Of a DNA stretch of 64,000 nt, positions 8,466 through 57,738 are shown in pieces (position 1 is the first letter of the stretch; every line of letters starts with the position of its first letter). Source of the DNA: a bacterium (GTDB lineage Bacteria; Patescibacteriota; Minisyncoccia; Sungbacterales; SURF-37). The notes below the pieces were generated by a model that ran no database searches, was not told the DNA's origin, and saw only the letters and a program-made list of their open reading frames with translations. Made by a program: the position numbers and the translations under genes. The DNA is taken from the NCBI GenBank assembly GCA_030648055.1, contig JAUSHI010000002.1, forward strand, positions 178 to 64,177, read 5' to 3'.

Positions 8466-9650
8466 TTATAGTTTGACGCCGTACGGGCGCAGAAATTCGC
8501 GGGCGATGATAAGCTCCTGGATGTCGGATGTTCCTTCGTAGGTTGTGAGAACACGCGAGTCGGCAAGAATCCACGAAATTGGAGTTTCAGCCATGAAGCC
8601 CATGCCACCGTGGAGCTTTGCCGCAACTGTGGCGATTTCTTCCGCGGCCTCCGAGGCAAAGAGCTTTGCTTTTGAGGCCTTTGCCATCACGGTGTCGGGC
8701 GAGAACTCCTCGGCGTTGTCAATAACCCATGCGGCCTGGTATGTAAGAAGTTCCGCGGCTTCAATCAAGAGCGCCATCCGCGCGAGCTTTGATTGAGTCA
8801 TCTGGAAGTCGGCGATGCGCTTTCCGAACTGTTTCCGCTCAAGGGTGTATTTCATCGCTTCTTCAAAGGCGGCTTTCGCGACACCGACGCTTTGTGCCGC
8901 AATCATGGGACGTGAGGCGGTGAGCGTTGCCATCGCGATAAAAAATCCTTGTCCGATATTCCCAATGATGTTTGATCCCGGCACCCGGCAGTTTTCAAAA
9001 TAGAGGGAAGAAGTCGGCGAGCAATGGAGGCCCGTTTTGTTGAAGTCCTTTGTGATTGTGAGCGTTCCTTCGGCTCTCGCTTTATCCGCACCAACCAGTA
9101 CCATCGTGAGGTCGTTGCGGGGATGAGAGTCGTCGGTCCGAAGAAGAACGAGAATGAGGTTCGCGATTGAGCCGTTCGTGATGAACTGCTTTTCACCGGT
9201 GATGACCACATCGCCGTTTTCAGTACAAGTTCCGCGCGTGCGGATCGCGCCGACATCGGAGCCAGCTCCCGGCTCGGTTTGGGCGTATGCGGCGATGACT
9301 TCGCCTGAGGCGATTTGCGGGAGCCATCTGTTCTTCTGCTCGTTGTTTCCGAAAAGCACCAGTGGCTTTGCGACGAGTGACTGCGAAGCACCAATAGAAA
9401 GCCCGATGCCGGCATCCGCCCGGCAAAGTTCCATGGTGAGCATGGCGTAGGAAATATTGTCTAGTCCCGCGCCGCCGTATTCTTGCGGAATAATGGCGCC
9501 TGCAAATCCCGCTTCAACCATCTTCGCAAAGATATCGCGCGGGAATTCCTTTTTCCGGAGCTGTTCGCGGTGAGGCATGATTTCGCGCGTTGCGAAATCC
9601 CGCGCTTCCTGCTGGAGCATCCTCTGTTCGTCGGTTAAGCGGAAATCCAT
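8466..9650 (-). CDS. acyl-CoA dehydrogenase family protein
   Basis: MDFRLTDEQRMLQQEARDFA...AYAQTEPGAGSD...YEGTSDIQELIIAREF are typical ACAD motifs. The start at 9650 is preceded by AAGGAGGG. Visibly G+C richer than its neighbours. Confidence 0.9.
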   Translation of the reverse strand: MDFRLTDEQRMLQQEARDFATREIMPHREQLRKKEFPRDIFAKMVEAGFAGAIIPQEYGGAGLDNISYAMLTMELCRADAGIGLSIGASQSLVAKPLVLFGNNEQKNRWLPQIASGEVIAAYAQTEPGAGSDVGAIRTRGTCTENGDVVITGEKQFITNGSIANLILVLLRTDDSHPRNDLTMVLVGADKARAEGTLTITKDFNKTGLHCSPTSSLYFENCRVPGSNIIGNIGQGFFIAMATLTASRPMIAAQSVGVAKAAFEEAMKYTLERKQFGKRIADFQMTQSKLARMALLIEAAELLTYQAAWVIDNAEEFSPDTVMAKASKAKLFASEAAEEIATVAAKLHGGMGFMAETPISWILADSRVLTTYEGTSDIQELIIAREFLRPYGVKL

Positions 9651-9995
9651 CGCACCCTCCTTATATATGTAAATGTTCTGCCTTCGGTATAGCAAGGAAA
9701 TTCGTTTTCGGCAATGCGGGAAAAAATAAAAATCATCCGTTTTTATTCGGCGTTTTATAGAGATAAAACTTATCCACAGCTAGCGTTGCGCCTCGTGCCG
9801 CTTGGGATATAATAGATATGAAGCACCTTCGAGAGGAGTTTTCGCAAAGCAGGCCTCGCAGAGCAAGGCAATTCCAGAAAGCCAAGCACTCCGATTGCTT
9901 AGCAAAGACTCTTTTCACTTCACCAGCTCATTTACACCCACAACAACCAACAACCATAGGGCAGCAAACGCTGTCCTCCTTTTTTATATTTTTTG

Positions 9996-36670: not shown

Positions 36671-36885
36671 GAATATATTATACTCTACGTTAAGAGCGCG
36701 AATCAGCGCAAGGTTTATTGTCTGGGTATAAAGTGTGGGTGGCTTAATGTTCATATAACATCCAGTGGCTTGACTTATCATTGGCATATGCTATCCTAAT
36801 GCAAGTTCTTAAGGTACCGCACGGCTCGTCAATAAGGCGGGTTATGGATCGGTGCCACAATTAAATAAAAAGAAAGGAGTTGTTG

Positions 36886-37662
36886 ATGAATGGTTTCATG
36901 CAGTGGTTCAGGGAAAAGAAAAAGGAAACGCTCACCGCGCTTGCGTTGACGGTTTTCTTAGGCGTAACGGTGGGGCCGTTTCTTGCCGCACGTTTGTATG
37001 GTTTCGCAACCGATCTTCTCGGCACCGTAGTCGCGTTACTCGTGCTCGCCGGAATCATTGTTCTCACGCCAACCATACTTTATCGGATTTCTCTTTTGGC
37101 GTATCGCGACAAGCAGAGAGCTATTGAAAAAGATCCAACAGCGGCTCTCATGATTGATCTTAAGGGGTTTCGTGAAGATGTTGCTGAGGGCGAAAAGACA
37201 CTTAGCGCGTTTGACGGCGATATCGCCGCAATCGATGAAGTACTGCGGGTCAGGGCCAAACATTTGAGGCCTGAAGACGTTGCCTTTTTCAAAGAGCAAC
37301 AGAGGGTGTTGGTTGAGGACCGCGGAACTTTCGAGCGCGGGCTTACAGAGAATTGTCACGAGCTCGGGGAATTTGAAGCCGAAGTCGTGCGAGCCGGTGT
37401 CATGCAGGATATCGGCAATCGGATGCAGAAGGCGGCTGACCGTTTGGCGCCAACTCATAAGCGAGGTATGGAGAGCGATGAGACTCTTACTGCTCTTCGG
37501 GCTTTGGCCAGCAGGGTGGCATCCGCCCGTTCTCAGCTCAGAATAAGTCTTGAGCGGAGTACGCTTGCAGTGCTTCAGCTTCCGGCCGGAGGGAATGTTT
37601 CGGTTTTTGAACTTCCCAGTCAGAAGCCTCGGGTTCTGGTTCAGCGTAATCCAACACCGTAG
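36886..37662 (+). CDS. hypothetical 2-TM protein with helical C-terminal domain (G+C-rich island gene 1)
   Basis: The ATG is preceded by AAAGGAG. Two N-terminal TM helices, then a charged helical region of about 170 aa. Confidence 0.6.
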   Translation: MNGFMQWFREKKKETLTALALTVFLGVTVGPFLAARLYGFATDLLGTVVALLVLAGIIVLTPTILYRISLLAYRDKQRAIEKDPTAALMIDLKGFREDVAEGEKTLSAFDGDIAAIDEVLRVRAKHLRPEDVAFFKEQQRVLVEDRGTFERGLTENCHELGEFEAEVVRAGVMQDIGNRMQKAADRLAPTHKRGMESDETLTALRALASRVASARSQLRISLERSTLAVLQLPAGGNVSVFELPSQKPRVLVQRNPTP

Positions 37663-37677
37663 GAAGGAGGTGACACC

Positions 37678-37830
37678 ATGCGGCGAATCGTAGCCATTGG
37701 TATTCTCGTCTTTGTTGTTCTGGCCGGAATCGCGTTTCTTGTTCTTCGTGACGACGGTAGTTCGTCCAGTTCGCGTTCGGCGCCTTCGGCTCCTGCCGGT
37801 GGCGGGCTCAAGGACTTCCGCGTTCCGTAG
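37678..37830 (+). CDS. small single-TM protein (50 aa), not in the ORF track
   Basis: The ATG is preceded by GGAAGGAGG (7-nt spacing). MRRIVAIGILVFVVLAGIAFLVL.. The third-position G+C bias is consistent with its neighbours. Confidence 0.45.
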   Translation: MRRIVAIGILVFVVLAGIAFLVLRDDGSSSSSRSAPSAPAGGGLKDFRVP

Positions 37831-37892
37831 TTCCAAACGCGGCGCTCGGAAACGGTCTTGCAGTTAACCTCTAACAAGAAAGGGAGGAACTC

Positions 37893-38864
37893 ATGAAGCT
37901 GACGAAGATCATGTTTGTGGCGGTTCTCGCCGTGGCGATCATCTCCATCGGTTTCGCCGACGCTCAAGTTCTGACGAAGCTTCGCATGGCTTCGGGCGGA
38001 GAGGGCGGGACCTATTACGTGATGGCCAATAACATGGCCACCTACTGCGGTGAAGGTCTCGCTCTTGATGTGCAGGCAACGGGAGGTTCGGACGACAACG
38101 TCGAGCGTCTGATCAACAACAAGGCCGATGTGGCGATCGTGCAGAAGGACATTCTCTTCAAGCGGGCCAAGTTCAACAACGACGCGGCCGTGAAGAACTT
38201 TCTCGCGGTCATGCCGCTTCACTACGAGGCGATGCACGTCGTGGTGCTCGAGAAATCGGGCATCGTGAAGTTCAGCGACCTCGGCGCGATGAAAGGCCGT
38301 TTTTACGGCGGTAGTCCCGGCAAGAAAGTCGGCGCTTACGGTGGTTCCATCGAATCGGCCGAGATAGTCAAGGCGATGAGTGATGTCGCCTATGAAATCG
38401 TGGTCGTTGAAAACCAGAAAGCGGCAGTGGCTGCTCTAAATAGTGGGCAGATTGACGCAATTTTGGCGATGGGTGGCACTCCACTAAAGTGGGTCGGTGA
38501 AGAGCTGAAGCGCGGTCAGCACCGGCTTGTCCAGTTCGACGTGCCGATTGACAAGGTCGCGGGCGCCTACAGGAAGGCGAACGTCACGTACACCAGGCTC
38601 GGCGCTAACGCCGTGCCAACGATTTCGACGGACGCCGTGCTCATCACCCGCAACTTCACCACTGCGGAGAAGGTCCGGGCGGTATCGCTTCTTCGCAAGT
38701 GCGTCTGGAGCGAGCTCACCCGGATGCAGGAAGCTGACGATACCCATGGCCAGTGGCAGAATGTCCAGAAGGACACGCAGGTTGAGGGGTGGTCGTGGTT
38801 TGCAGGAATGCAGGTTCAGTGGCCGTCCGGTGGCGGAAGCGCGCCGGTTCCGAAGAGGAAGTAA
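37893..38864 (+). CDS. TAXI-family TRAP-type solute-binding protein (orphan, no permease nearby)
   Basis: Signal peptide. ASGGEGGTYYVMANNMA...ATGGSDDNVERLINNKADVAIVQKD..MPLHYEAMHVVV fits the TAXI (TIGR02122-like) signature. A strong SD AAAGGGAGG precedes the ATG. Confidence 0.75.
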   Translation: MKLTKIMFVAVLAVAIISIGFADAQVLTKLRMASGGEGGTYYVMANNMATYCGEGLALDVQATGGSDDNVERLINNKADVAIVQKDILFKRAKFNNDAAVKNFLAVMPLHYEAMHVVVLEKSGIVKFSDLGAMKGRFYGGSPGKKVGAYGGSIESAEIVKAMSDVAYEIVVVENQKAAVAALNSGQIDAILAMGGTPLKWVGEELKRGQHRLVQFDVPIDKVAGAYRKANVTYTRLGANAVPTISTDAVLITRNFTTAEKVRAVSLLRKCVWSELTRMQEADDTHGQWQNVQKDTQVEGWSWFAGMQVQWPSGGGSAPVPKRK

Positions 38865-38884
38865 TAATTCGCCGTAAACACGGC

Positions 38885-38920
38885 AAAAGCGCGTGGGGAA
38901 ACCATCCCACGCGCGTTTTT
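38885..38920 (+). terminator. intrinsic terminator closing the island
   Basis: AAAAGCGCGTGGG-GAAACCAT-CCCACGCGCGTTTTT. Confidence 0.7.
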
Positions 38921-54511: not shown

Positions 54512-55363
54512 ATGAAGATTCTGAAATTCCCATGGGAAGCGGGGGGCGGGGCGAAAAGCATCGGTTCAAGTTACGGGCCTGATGCGATTGAGACCCAGTT
54601 CAATAAGTACCCGTGGCGGTGTTCTGAAAGCGGAGTTCCGGCGCGTGATGTTCAGTTTTTGGATGTAAAGGCCGTGCAGAGCAGTTCAATGCATCGAGCG
54701 TTCGGGGTTGGGGTACAAGCTATTCTTAACCATGAATCTTCGCTCGCCGTGCTTTCCGGAGATAATTCGTGCAGTTTTTACACGGTAATGAACGTTGCCA
54801 AGCGCTTTCCAGACCCGCAACTTGTGGTGCTGGACGCGCATCTTGATGCTTGCGATACCAAACACGACGCGCACGCGAGCTGGGTGCGGCGGCTTTGGGA
54901 GAACGACATCGTGCGTCCGGAGAAAACCATTTTTTTTGGAATTCGCGACGCTGAAGCCGAGGAGCTCTCTTACGCGAAAGAGAAGGGGGCAATTATTTAT
55001 CTATGCCGAAATCTCTTCATCAATGCTGATATGGCGCGCATTGTTTTGGGGCTTGAGACCACCATGCGCGTTGATACGTCTTCAGCTCTTATACTGGTTG
55101 TTGATATAGATGTGGTTGACCCCTCGCAGGCGCCAGCTACTGGAGTGCTACGCGCCCCCGGCCTTGATCTTAGACAGGTCCTTTCTATTATCCGTGCCTT
55201 TGGTGAGCTTCATTTTCCAGTGAAAGTTGGCGAGATTTGCGAAGTGATTCCCGAAGAGGGGAATATGATGCGGCCGCCGTGCGACAAGCGCCCGGACCCC
55301 ACGGGACTCACTGTGCTTGCCACGGAGGCCATTCTTCGGGAAATGATTTGTTCTTTTGCTTAA
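54512..55363 (+). CDS. arginase/agmatinase/formiminoglutamase-family (ureohydrolase) protein
   Basis: DAHLDACD and VVDIDVVDP metal motifs are present. The usual GGDHS is SGDNS here. Confidence 0.7.
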   Translation: MKILKFPWEAGGGAKSIGSSYGPDAIETQFNKYPWRCSESGVPARDVQFLDVKAVQSSSMHRAFGVGVQAILNHESSLAVLSGDNSCSFYTVMNVAKRFPDPQLVVLDAHLDACDTKHDAHASWVRRLWENDIVRPEKTIFFGIRDAEAEELSYAKEKGAIIYLCRNLFINADMARIVLGLETTMRVDTSSALILVVDIDVVDPSQAPATGVLRAPGLDLRQVLSIIRAFGELHFPVKVGEICEVIPEEGNMMRPPCDKRPDPTGLTVLATEAILREMICSFA

Positions 55364-55422
55364 GTTTAGTAAGTTAGCAAGCCCTTTATATAGGGCTTTT
55401 TTAATAGAATATGCATAAATAC

Positions 55423-55450
55423 TTGACAAATTTTGTCAGTTTGCTATAAT
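55423..55450 (+). promoter_or_regulatory. near-consensus sigma-70 promoter with palindromic -35 region
   Basis: TTGACA-N16-TATAAT. TGACAAATTTTGTCA forms an imperfect palindrome over the -35 region. Confidence 0.65.
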
Positions 55451-55482
55451 GTGGTTAAAATTCGTAGCATTAGGAAGGGAGA

Positions 55483-55686
55483 GTGGAAACCGTGGAGTTG
55501 ACAATGGATGGTCATGTTGTCGGCGAGTGCGATGAGGACATTTTCGAGATCGTGGTGGCCTACTTGGCCGATGGGCGTTCGCAGGCAGATGTCGCCAAGG
55601 AGCTTCTGGCCTCCGGCGTTCCGCATGCGCTTGATGTTGTTGTGAACGCAAAGCGTGTGCTCAAGGAGCGCGGTATCCTGGTGTAA
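55483..55686 (+). CDS. small acidic hypothetical protein (67 aa), G+C-rich cassette gene 1
   Basis: GTG start preceded by AGGAAGGGAGA. High third-position G+C. Confidence 0.5.
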   Translation: METVELTMDGHVVGECDEDIFEIVVAYLADGRSQADVAKELLASGVPHALDVVVNAKRVLKERGILV

Positions 55687-55719
55687 CAACATCCACGCGA
55701 GAGAAAGGTGGTGAATGCC

Positions 55720-55929
55720 ATGCAGATTCGCAGACAGCTTCGTGCAAGTTCGGATGCGTTCGCCAAGGACCGCCGGCTCGCGGTGTGCCCCGAGGAGAAC
55801 ACGCACCGCGGACTCGGCAAGGTGTGCGGACTCGGGTACACTCATTCCAAGTATGTCCGCACGCGTTTCAAGTCCCGCGCGCGGCACCACGGGACGGCGC
55901 CACGCCACACCAAGAAGGGCGGCCAGTAG
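55720..55929 (+). CDS. small basic hypothetical protein (69 aa), G+C-rich cassette gene 2
   Basis: The ATG is preceded by AAAGGTGG. Of the three overlapping plus-strand frames, this one has the strong third-position G/C bias. Confidence 0.45.
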   Translation: MQIRRQLRASSDAFAKDRRLAVCPEENTHRGLGKVCGLGYTHSKYVRTRFKSRARHHGTAPRHTKKGGQ

Positions 55930-56304
55930 TCTGTCGCAAAAGGGGATCATGCACCCCCGGCGCTCAAAGACCAAACGGTCAATGAGCGTCATTTTTATTT
56001 ATTCGTCTAAATTTTTATAGAGTATCAAATATTCTTGTTGGTCTAATTCGCGCGAATAGTGGAATAAGACCGGATGTAAATAAAATTTAGCAACAAATAA
56101 ATAGCCCAGCCCTCTATGCTCTCAGAAATACCGCTAGTTTCTAAAAGCGCGTAAATATTTTTGCTATGTAATATTATATTGCAAACTGCTTAGAGGGCTG
56201 GGTGAACAACCGCGTATACCGCAAGCTTGTGTGATATCGCATCGCTTGCGGTGCAGTTGTTCATTGTTTCAAAAGATGTTATTTTTGTTAGGTACTCGCA
56301 ATTT

Positions 56305-57738
56305 ATGGAACGCGTTTTAATAAAAGAAACATTGGCAAAGATCGGGGAAAAAGTCCGCTTGGCGGGCTGGGTTTCGGTCAGGCGCAATCACGGAAAAATT
56401 ATTTTTATTGACCTCCGCGATCGCTCGGGGGTTTTTCAGGTTGTTTTTACGCCTAAAAATGCGGAAGTGTACGCAATTGCCGAGACGCTTCGTCCGGAAT
56501 GGGTGATTGCCGTTGAAGGAATAGTTCAAAAGAGGCCGAGCGGCATGGAAAACGCCGAACTTGAAACCGGTCAGATTGAACTTCCTGCCGAAAGTATTGA
56601 AATATTGAACAAGGCCGAAACAGTGCCTTTTGATATTCACGGCGACGGAAAAGAAATTGAAGAGGAGGTCCGCCTTAAATATCGCTATATTGACCTTCGG
56701 AGGCCGCGGTTGCAAAAGAATATGCGGAATCGCGCCAAGGCTATTAAGTTTATACGCGATTATCTTTCGCCGTTGGATTTTGTTGAAATTGAAACGCCGG
56801 TTTTATCCAAGTCCACTCCTGAAGGCGCGCGCGATTACCTTGTGCCTTCACGGGTTCACTTGGGAAAATTTTACGCTCTTCCGCAATCTCCCCAACAATA
56901 TAAACAGCTTCTAATGGTGTCTTGTTTTGAGCGGTATTTTCAGATCGCGCGTTGTTTCCGGGACGAAGATACGCGTGGAGACAGACAGCCGGAGTTTACA
57001 CAACTTGATCTGGAAATGAGTTTTGTTAAGAGGGAAGACGTGATGGACTTGATTGAAGACATGTTCATTAAGCTTGTCGGTTCACTTTATCCGGAAAAGC
57101 GCATTCAAAAAATTCCTTTCCCCCGCATTTCACACAAAGAAGCAATGGAAAAATACGGTACAGATCGGCCAGACTTGAGGGAGGATAAAAATGACCCAAA
57201 TCTTCTTGCCTTCGGGTGGGTGATTGATTTTCCGTTTTTTGAAAAAGTTGAAGATGAGCGAAGTCTAAAGCTATCTGACGATGGCTCGGCTAAATGGACA
57301 TTTACCCACAATCCTTTCTCGGCTCCCAAGCCGGAGCATATGGAGTGGCTTATAGAGAAAAAGAATATCGGTGAAATTCTTACTACGCAATATGATATCG
57401 TGCTTAACGGCTATGAAGTAGGCGGGGGAAGCATTCGTAATCATCAGCCGGAGGCGCTTAAAAAAGTTTTTGAGATTATGGGTTTTTCCGAAGAGCGGAT
57501 TATGGCCAATTTCGGGCATATGATCCAGGCGCTTGCTTTCGGGGCTCCGCCCCACGGCGGAATTGCTCCGGGAATTGATCGGCTTATTATGATATTGGAA
57601 AACGAGCCGAATATCCGCGAGGTAATCGCGTTTCCGAAAACCGGAGACGCCAGGGATCCGATGATGGACGGGCCATCGGAAGTTTCTAAGGAACAGCTGA
57701 AGGAACTCGGCATTAAGTTTGAAAAGGAGAAAAAGTAA
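56305..57738 (+). CDS. aspS: aspartate--tRNA ligase (bacterial-type core, lacks the GAD insertion)
   Basis: GWVSVRRNHGKIIFIDLRDRSG, QSPQQYKQLLM, FRDEDTRGDRQPEFTQLD, GGIAPGIDRL. RPDLR is followed almost directly by WVIDFPFFE. Confidence 0.93.
   Translation: MERVLIKETLAKIGEKVRLAGWVSVRRNHGKIIFIDLRDRSGVFQVVFTPKNAEVYAIAETLRPEWVIAVEGIVQKRPSGMENAELETGQIELPAESIEILNKAETVPFDIHGDGKEIEEEVRLKYRYIDLRRPRLQKNMRNRAKAIKFIRDYLSPLDFVEIETPVLSKSTPEGARDYLVPSRVHLGKFYALPQSPQQYKQLLMVSCFERYFQIARCFRDEDTRGDRQPEFTQLDLEMSFVKREDVMDLIEDMFIKLVGSLYPEKRIQKIPFPRISHKEAMEKYGTDRPDLREDKNDPNLLAFGWVIDFPFFEKVEDERSLKLSDDGSAKWTFTHNPFSAPKPEHMEWLIEKKNIGEILTTQYDIVLNGYEVGGGSIRNHQPEALKKVFEIMGFSEERIMANFGHMIQALAFGAPPHGGIAPGIDRLIMILENEPNIREVIAFPKTGDARDPMMDGPSEVSKEQLKELGIKFEKEKK

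Follow-up and report, generated by a model that had tools for sequence, protein, structure and literature searches.

A G+C-rich promoter-to-terminator cassette upstream of aspS in a candidate-phylum bacterium carries a predicted small basic Cys/His protein of an unnamed family common to bacteria and uncultured phages

We analyzed a 64,000-nt stretch of DNA (here called the window) from a bacterium of the order Sungbacterales (Patescibacteriota, SURF-37; assembly GCA_030648055.1, contig JAUSHI010000002.1, positions 178 to 64,177 of the forward strand), focusing on a G+C-rich cassette of two short open reading frames (ORFs) that lies between an arginase-family gene and aspS, the gene for a class II aspartyl-tRNA synthetase. 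We found that this region is a self-contained bicistronic transcription unit among housekeeping genes. Judged by sequence comparison, its second gene, ORF2, is a member of an unnamed protein family common to uncultured phages and low-GC candidate-phyla bacteria, and it is ORF2, not ORF1, that emerges as the conserved cargo of the unit. The explanation that we favor, and consider probable, is that the cassette is a strongly expressed promoter-to-terminator unit whose cargo, ORF2, would be a nucleic-acid-binding protein of the zinc-knuckle type with phage ancestry, and that ORF1 is a non-obligatory passenger.

RESULTS

Organization of the cassette

The cassette opens on the plus strand with a promoter that matches the consensus at 12 of 12 positions (Table 1), with TTGACA at 55423-55428, a 16-nt spacer, TATAAT at 55445-55450 and an extended -10 element (TGcTATAAT). 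It is the only full-consensus site of the form TTGACA-N16-18-TATAAT in the 64-kb window, compared to 0.03 expected from dinucleotide shuffles. The -35 hexamer is overlapped by a perfect 15-nt palindrome, TGACAAA-T-TTTGTCA (TGACAAATTTTGTCA), with 7-bp arms around a single central base. No second copy of this palindrome was found in the window, and it was not found in the promoters of the homologous ORF2 cassettes described below. The window contains 38 perfect palindromes with 7-bp arms, and the chance that one of them overlaps a given promoter is ~0.02-0.03; an overlap of promoter and palindrome beyond chance is therefore suggestive, not compelling.

Downstream of the promoter are two small ORFs separated by 33 nt, each with a Shine-Dalgarno sequence and a high G+C content at third codon positions (GC3). 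The predicted isoelectric point (pI) is 4.5 for ORF1, with a net charge of about -7, and 11.4 for ORF2. The near-perfect promoter, the palindrome embedding the -35 region, the two small genes between the arginase-family gene and aspS and the contrast of an acidic with a basic product had all been described in an earlier reading of this DNA (the original prediction), and all were recovered in our analysis. That reading had not listed the terminator that closes the cassette, a hairpin at 55959-55990 (GGCGCUCA..UGAGCGUC) followed by the T-run AUUUUUAUUU; the fold of 55925-56010 has a predicted energy of -26.2 kcal/mol (z = -3.1). On the 5' side, the arginase-family gene ends at 55363 and is followed by its own terminator, a 7-bp stem and T-run that forms the upstream boundary of the cassette. 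We describe the unit as self-contained because it has its own promoter and terminator and because the upstream gene is terminated separately. As predicted from these signals, transcription of the cassette is probably strong and constitutive. The wider neighborhood encodes Ddl, the arginase-family protein, AspRS, ScpA, ScpB, a D-Ala-D-Ala carboxypeptidase and a glycosyltransferase family 4 protein, and no phage genes, integrase or repeats flanking the cassette were seen among these neighbors.

ORF2 and its protein family

The ATG start of ORF2 could be fixed because every homologue begins with MQIR. The first relative, found by a word-indexed search, was P0001 (E = 8.5e-18, 62% identity). An exhaustive profile search of 1.84 billion representative sequences returned 11 clusters, and a profile search of 5.8 billion proteins returned 36 (numbers with P denote family or cluster proteins of the searches, and those with L denote fetched loci). 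Homologues are 47-68% identical to ORF2, with E-values (phmmer/hmmsearch) from 8.5e-18 down to 1e-24.

Members of the family are 57-83 residues long and very basic, and their alignment has three parts. A nearly invariant N terminus, MQIRxQLR, forms a helix; a variable middle segment contains a short group of Cys and His residues that ends in GYH; and the tail, RxRFK(S/A)R(A/S)RHHG(N/T)xxGQSK, is conserved, basic and predicted to be disordered. The Cys/His spacing is C-x5-H-x6-C-x5-H in ORF2 and its closest relatives and CC-x4-C-PSGYH (CC-x4-C-x4-H) in most phage members. When ORF2 was modeled by AlphaFold2 with a 38-sequence alignment, only the N-terminal helix was obtained, and the rest was of low confidence (mean predicted local distance difference test score, pLDDT, of 60), as expected of a basic protein that would become ordered upon binding a partner.

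We observed no match of ORF2 and 13 family members to Pfam (E up to 1), PHROGs, NCBIfam, PADLOC or the sequences of the Protein Data Bank (PDB). The original prediction had recognized no family for either protein of the cassette, and the curated libraries likewise match neither. Cultured and GenBank phage genomes contained no copy of the ORF2 family, the motif strings of the family were not found in the literature, and no paper on a small basic protein of this kind from bacteria of the candidate phyla radiation (CPR) or from phages turned up. By these searches, the family is rare, absent from curated libraries and undescribed. ORF2 itself is missing from the 5.8-billion-protein collection, although ORF1 of the same metagenome-assembled genome (MAG) record is present there, and ORF2 was therefore probably left uncalled in the MAG annotation.

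None of the relatives resembles the window at the DNA level outside the ORF2 coding region (55719-55930). Compared to its closest relatives, ORF2 shows 74-78% identity at codon positions 1 and 2 and 49% at position 3, and the ratio of nonsynonymous to synonymous divergence (dN/dS) is 0.19-0.39 with a synonymous divergence (dS) of at least 0.9. By this pattern of substitution, ORF2 is a real gene under purifying selection.

Two apparent relatives were discarded. In a metagenome match (L002), the similarity came from a ferredoxin-type motif, CxxCxxCxxxCPEEN, of a membrane protein of 350 aa, and a delta-proteobacterial match to our DNA pattern (L021) was due to chance.

Family members in bacterial genomes

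The members from low-GC bacterial genomes fall in a sub-clade of the family. We scanned 185,579 species genomes with a degenerate DNA pattern and found two true loci; the organism labels given here are from the same scan. L017, L018 (a MAG labeled Candidatus Saccharibacteria) and L020 (labeled Parcubacteria group) represent one common locus, in which the family gene adjoins a tRNA gene and the gene for AhpC. The promoters of L017 and L018 match the consensus at 12 of 12 positions (TTGACA-N17-TGnTATAAT); only the -10 element was seen in L020, for which the fetched DNA ends inside the promoter. A short conserved leader is common to all three, as is a strong terminator whose stem measures 15-16 bp. 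A further locus, L004, has a TTGACA-N17-TATGGT promoter, a strong terminator and a tRNA gene downstream. The ORF2 homologue is solitary in each of these four loci.

L003 is organized differently: downstream of a 12/12 promoter come, in order, a gene for an unrelated basic zinc ribbon of 73 aa, the homologue of ORF2 (68% identity), an 85-aa ORF and aspS, so that the family gene occupies the same position relative to aspS as ORF2 does in the window. The promoter is the sole full-consensus site, or one of two, in the loci L003, L017 and L018. No homologue of ORF1 was present beside a family member in any fetched locus. In the loci examined, the cellular copies always form G+C-rich units bounded by a dedicated promoter and terminator. 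Since the bacterial copies have a promoter and terminator of their own, with a perfect consensus at four loci (the window, L003, L017 and L018), an abundant and easily tested product is to be expected.

We also recorded several other small genes at these loci. The first gene of the L003 unit (1770-1991) is G+C-rich and encodes a CxxC…CxxC zinc ribbon of pI 9.6 with weak matches to RNHCP and IS91 zinc domains, and the 85-aa ORF between the unit and aspS (2388-2645) is Cys-rich. At 8441-8825 of L018, a second full-consensus promoter drives a 100-aa ORF that has no Pfam match and is not G+C-rich. This region, which has a tRNA-like sequence on one side and a gene for a tyrosine recombinase on the other, may be a small integrated element.

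Family members in phage contigs

P0010 (L008/L009) is encoded on a 47-kb contig with genes for a large terminase, a PDDEXK nuclease, AAA_24 and RNase T, and four viral contigs in IMG/VR (L010-L013) carry family members. P0016, P0022 and P0037 are encoded within arrays of tiny genes; the contigs concerned (L014-L016, L022-L024) also carry a gene for a phage-type sigma factor, together with COOH-NH2 ligase, GATase_6 and GGACT genes in clusters. The neighbors of the family gene in phage contigs are other tiny genes, which differ from ORF1.

The amidoligase and peptide-modification clusters of these contigs (COOH-NH2 ligase, GATase_6, GGACT and R2K-type ATP-grasp) are located at 18512-20234 in L014, 4589-11510 in L022 and 10104-13092 in L024. 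A weak match to Ribosomal_L12 was seen in a protein encoded by L014 and L016.

Composition and residence of the cassette

The G+C content of the cassette is 0.59, compared to 0.45 for the window, and GC3 is 0.66 in ORF1 and 0.80 in ORF2, compared to 0.36-0.52 in housekeeping genes of the window (RecA, DnaK, L21, S6 and others). Cellular copies of the family have a GC3 of 0.68-0.91 vs. 0.40-0.54 in their neighbors, and the closest phage-like contigs have a G+C content of 0.54-0.59 vs. 0.41-0.50 in the bacterial genomes.

Despite this composition, ORF2 appears to be a long-standing resident rather than a recent arrival, because a syntenic relative lies upstream of aspS in L003 and because synonymous divergence is comparable to that of neighboring genes. 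When the window is compared to L003, aspS shows 79% identity and a dS of 2.6, and ORF2 shows 68% identity and a dS of 1.0. Among L017, L018 and L020, AhpC is 89-94% identical with a dS of ~0.95, and the family gene is 63-81% identical with dS values from 0.69 to saturation. By these values, the gene has stayed at one fixed position in each of two lineages while its synonymous sites turned over substantially, and GC3 remained high. The high GC3 permits two readings, a maintained composition or periodic overwriting by phage copies.

The same data bear on the idea that the cassette is a recent foreign islet from the donor of another island in the window, at 36.9-38.9 kb, which has not yet ameliorated and has no particular role. 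The original prediction had pointed to a foreign-looking composition and to a source in common with that island. The deviating composition was confirmed, and GC3 is indeed similar in the two regions (0.66-0.80 in the cassette, 0.67-0.75 in the other island, both above the housekeeping range). The nearest relatives sit in G+C-richer phage-like contigs, and the differing first genes of the window and L003 suggest turnover. A recent import is argued against, however, by the synteny with L003 and the aspS-like divergence of the gene there, by the copy beside a tRNA gene and AhpC in three genomes of a second lineage (dS about 0.7-1.4), by the purifying selection on ORF2 and by the absence of an integrase, repeats or phage genes around the cassette. 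The genes of the other island are unrelated to the cassette, that island has neither a consensus promoter nor any sequence relation to it, and a common source would be argued from GC3 only. We therefore consider the recent-islet explanation unlikely.

The other island (36880-38914) encodes a predicted membrane protein of 260 aa, for which Pfam gave no match, and an NMT1_3 solute-binding protein of 323 aa with a GC3 of 0.75, and ends with a terminator at 38889-38914. A third compositional outlier of the window, at 8466-9695 on the minus strand, encodes a 409-aa acyl-CoA dehydrogenase (G+C content 0.55, GC3 0.63).

It could also be asked whether ORF2 is a housekeeping ribosome-associated protein, of the ribosomal or hibernation type, that has been copied in phages. 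The promoter is of the full-consensus kind seen at highly expressed genes, several small ribosomal proteins are like ORF2 in their strong basicity, their conserved disordered tail and their Cys/His cluster of the zinc type, and the weak Ribosomal_L12 match comes from a phage contig in which the family is present. However, the distribution of the family is sporadic, with two true loci in 185,579 species genomes and 36 clusters in 5.8 billion proteins, which makes a housekeeping ribosomal role improbable. In addition, Pfam ribosomal families matched none of the 13 members, and the ribosomal and other highly expressed genes of the window do not have the codon composition of ORF2.

ORF1 and its pairing with ORF2

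ORF1 encodes 67 aa when read from the GTG at 55483, 64 aa from the GTG at 55492 and 62 aa from the TTG at 55498, the start given in the MAG/NCBI annotation (Q7R91_00360, MDO8560655.1). The GTG at 55492 is the more likely start, since its spacing to the Shine-Dalgarno sequence AGGAAGGGAG fits better. We found no homologue of ORF1 in the 5.8 billion proteins (word-indexed search; its own record apart), IMG/VR, GenBank phages or the fetched loci, and the only match was P0040 from L025, a contig of the same organism that is 100% identical to the window. Comparison of ORF1 with Pfam, PHROGs and NCBIfam gave sub-threshold noise only, and PADLOC gave no match.

A single-sequence AlphaFold2 model of ORF1 was nevertheless confident (pLDDT of 93, predicted template modeling score of 0.78), with strands at residues 3-8 and 11-17 forming a β-hairpin and helices at residues 18-29, 34-43 and 49-63. 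G+C content at the three codon positions is 0.74, 0.31 and 0.66. We take ORF1 to be a real protein because of this confident predicted fold, the codon-position G+C content and its place inside the transcription unit. A Foldseek search with the model gave no significant match. In BFVD, it returned weak alignments over the three helices to small phage proteins that were uncharacterized or of the helix-turn-helix type.

Residues 33-64 of ORF1 (window 55579-55674; SQADVAKELLASGVPHALDVVVNAKRVLKERG) aligned with the 33-residue repeat of BurrH (phmmer E = 4e-7). This E-value is inflated because 15 near-identical repeats are summed. When ORF1 was evaluated as a protein similar to transcription activator-like effectors (TALEs) with a single-repeat profile, it scored 10.2 bits and ranked third among 20,001 sequences, with 2 of 20,000 shuffles scoring higher, and it had no match to the Pfam TAL-effector model. 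The candidate was rejected, and the similarity to BurrH is a lead, not a finding.

The pairing of a small acidic with a small basic protein had been taken in the original prediction as recalling toxin-antitoxin or regulator-effector pairs. In its explicit form, this idea holds that the cassette is a type II toxin-antitoxin system or a dedicated regulator-effector pair, in which acidic ORF1 neutralizes ORF2 and autoregulates the unit via the palindrome. The usual layout is matched, with a small acidic followed by a small basic protein, a 33-nt gap and a palindrome over the -35 element, and the last three helices of ORF1 are weakly like the helix-turn-helix domains of small phage proteins. In the fetched loci, however, no family member had a homologue of ORF1 next to it. 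Homologues of ORF2 occur alone behind consensus-type promoters (L004, L017, L018 and L020) or with an unrelated partner (L003), which is a zinc ribbon and is itself basic. Because the pair is not conserved and the ORF2 homologues stand alone, the toxin-antitoxin reading is not supported. No toxin or antitoxin domain was found in either protein with Pfam, NCBIfam or PADLOC, and the negative net charge of ORF1 makes it unlikely to be a DNA-binding repressor. We regard a dedicated pair as quite improbable.

It is highly improbable that ORF1 is a PqqD-like, peptide-binding recognition element (RRE) for ribosomally synthesized and post-translationally modified peptides (RiPPs), with ORF2 as its peptide ligand or precursor. 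The top two PDB matches of the ORF1 model do contain an RRE (CteB, 5wgg; TbiB1, 5v1v; query TM-scores 0.46-0.56), the topology of the model is that of an RRE minus one strand (β-strands, then three helices), and the N-terminal segment of ORF2 is strongly conserved; however, these matches were not significant (Foldseek E ~2, probability 0.18-0.25, root mean square deviation ~8 Å), there is no modifying enzyme among the neighbors of the cassette, ORF2 homologues lack an ORF1-like neighbor and the best conserved part of the family is its basic tail, not a variable core peptide.

Coding status and strand

A 182-aa ORF on the minus strand had been named beforehand as a possible refutation of the two small genes. 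Its codons are made up of the very triplets that are read for ORF1 and ORF2, Pfam does not match it, and its frame is broken in L017, L014, L008 and L005. Third-position variation tracks the frame of the plus strand, not that of the antisense ORF. We conclude that this ORF is a shadow, because the antisense frame is generally open in high-GC3 genes and is interrupted in four homologues, and that the two small genes stand. With Rfam 15, only tRNAs reached the gathering threshold across the window, and the region 55300-56300 gave noise only (E up to 10). The folding energy of the 542-nt transcript is ordinary compared to shuffles (z = -0.87).

G+C-rich segments of low-GC genomes often prove to be structured RNAs and the minus strand is open for 182 aa, but the notion that the coding signal is illusory, reflecting a structured non-coding RNA or a true minus-strand gene, is refuted as far as sequence analysis can go and has next to no probability, given these results, substitutions that follow the plus frame with dN/dS of about 0.2-0.3, and a promoter, Shine-Dalgarno sequences and terminator that are all oriented on the plus strand.

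Table 1. Features of the cassette and its upstream boundary (window coordinates)
Feature	Position	Strand	Basis
Upstream terminator hairpin (arginase-family gene)	55379..55398	+	Terminator scan, 7-bp stem and T-run
Sigma-70-type promoter	55423..55450	+	12/12 match, with TG
Perfect palindrome, candidate operator	55424..55438	.	Read from sequence
ORF1, acidic orphan	55483..55686	+	Shine-Dalgarno sequence, codon-position G+C content, structure model
ORF2 Shine-Dalgarno sequence AAAGGTGGTG, ending 6 nt before the ATG	55704..55713	+	Read from sequence
ORF2, 69-aa basic Cys/His protein	55720..55929	+	Homologues, dN/dS
Cassette intrinsic terminator	55959..55997	+	Fold energy, T-run
182-aa antisense ORF, shadow	55444..55992	-	Same triplets as ORF1/ORF2, frame broken in homologues

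The aspS leader

The terminator of the cassette is separated from the likely start of aspS (ATG at 56305) by a leader of ~300 nt (56000-56310, plus strand) that is strongly structured, with a predicted fold of -97.4 kcal/mol compared to -68.9 ± 4.65 kcal/mol for shuffles (z = -6.1). It contains two long helices, at ~56104-56203 and 56204-56262, and a motif, GGGTGAACAACCGCG, that is loosely T-box-like; Rfam gave no match up to an E-value of 10. The leader may be an undescribed cis-regulatory element of aspS.

DISCUSSION

Under the explanation that we favor, ORF2 would bind nucleic acid, or a nucleic-acid machine, by means of its small zinc knuckle and disordered basic tail, and would be an abundant accessory factor derived from phage that the host keeps permanently on. 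Its most likely role would be interference with, or regulation of, related phages; alternatively, it may be an accessory of the nucleoid or an RNA-binding accessory. ORF1 would be a lineage-specific acidic passenger in a first slot whose occupants can be swapped. Although ORF1 may bind ORF2 or the palindrome over the -35 element, it would not be an obligatory partner.

Several points weigh against this explanation. The binding of nucleic acid and zinc by ORF2 is deduced only from its charge, its Cys/His pattern and its predicted disorder, and one family member, P0038, has none of the cysteines. An anti-phage or regulatory role for ORF2 is speculation, and PADLOC models match neither protein. 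The case for ORF1 as a real protein is made from a single genome, a single structure model and its composition by codon position. Finally, the high GC3 could reflect repeated recombinational replacement by G+C-richer phage copies. The first genes of the window (ORF1) and L003 (the zinc ribbon) are both G+C-rich and are not homologous, and some recombinational turnover is therefore favored.

A bolder version of the favored explanation, which we put forward tentatively and think unlikely to hold in full, is that bacteria of the candidate phyla (Patescibacteria type) have domesticated a phage early protein. The protein would be a small basic zinc-knuckle nucleic-acid binder, produced constitutively at a high level and acting, by interference or regulation, on phages that carry homologues of it. 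Its extremely G+C-rich codons would be actively maintained in low-GC genomes across speciation, by selection or by recurrent recombination with phages, and the slot ahead of it would exchange phage-derived passengers such as ORF1.

Interactions between CPR bacteria and their phages are poorly understood and the hosts are almost entirely uncultured; the family described here links uncultured phages to genomes of the Saccharibacteria and Parcubacteria types. It is a newly defined family of small proteins that is in no curated library and is partly missed by gene callers. The persistence of a high GC3 in low-GC genomes is a compositional anomaly with consequences for the interpretation of "foreign" islands. 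As regards annotation, the lesson is that the acidic/basic pairing seen here does not amount to a toxin-antitoxin system.

Compared to type II toxin-antitoxin systems, the cassette has the same gene order, acidic before basic and both products small, in a single operon whose promoter contains a palindrome, but differs in that the pair is unconserved, the basic protein is found alone elsewhere and no toxin or antitoxin family is matched. ORF1 resembles BurrH, a TALE-like protein of Burkholderia (PDB 4cj9), in that residues 33-64 are modeled as two helices, short and then long, joined by a loop; unlike BurrH, it has a single such unit and no tandem repeats of 33-35 residues.

Small zinc-binding regulators of phages include the late activators Ogr of P2 and Delta of P4, and Com of Mu, and the zinc-binding ribosomal proteins include bL36, bL31 and bL32. 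Like ORF2, these proteins have 40-80 residues, are basic, contain a cluster of four Cys/His ligands and are carried by phages or expressed at a high level, a likeness that suggests binding of nucleic acid or RNA polymerase by ORF2. They differ in that their Pfam models match none of the 13 family members (E up to 1), a PDB profile search was empty, and they lack the ligand spacing, MQIRxQLR head and RxRFKxRxRHHG tail of the family.

The morons of phages are autonomous promoter-gene-terminator units with a deviating G+C content (Cumby, Davidson and Maxwell 2012, PMC3594210). Unlike a moron, the cassette is surrounded by housekeeping genes of the chromosome (Ddl, arginase family, AspRS, ScpAB) rather than located in a prophage, it has apparently been inherited vertically with its neighbors, and it contains two genes, of which the second alone is conserved. 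It resembles a moron in having its own promoter and terminator, in deviating sharply from its surroundings in both G+C content (0.59 vs. 0.45) and GC3 (0.66 and 0.80 vs. 0.36-0.52), and in carrying as its cargo a small gene with homologues in phages.

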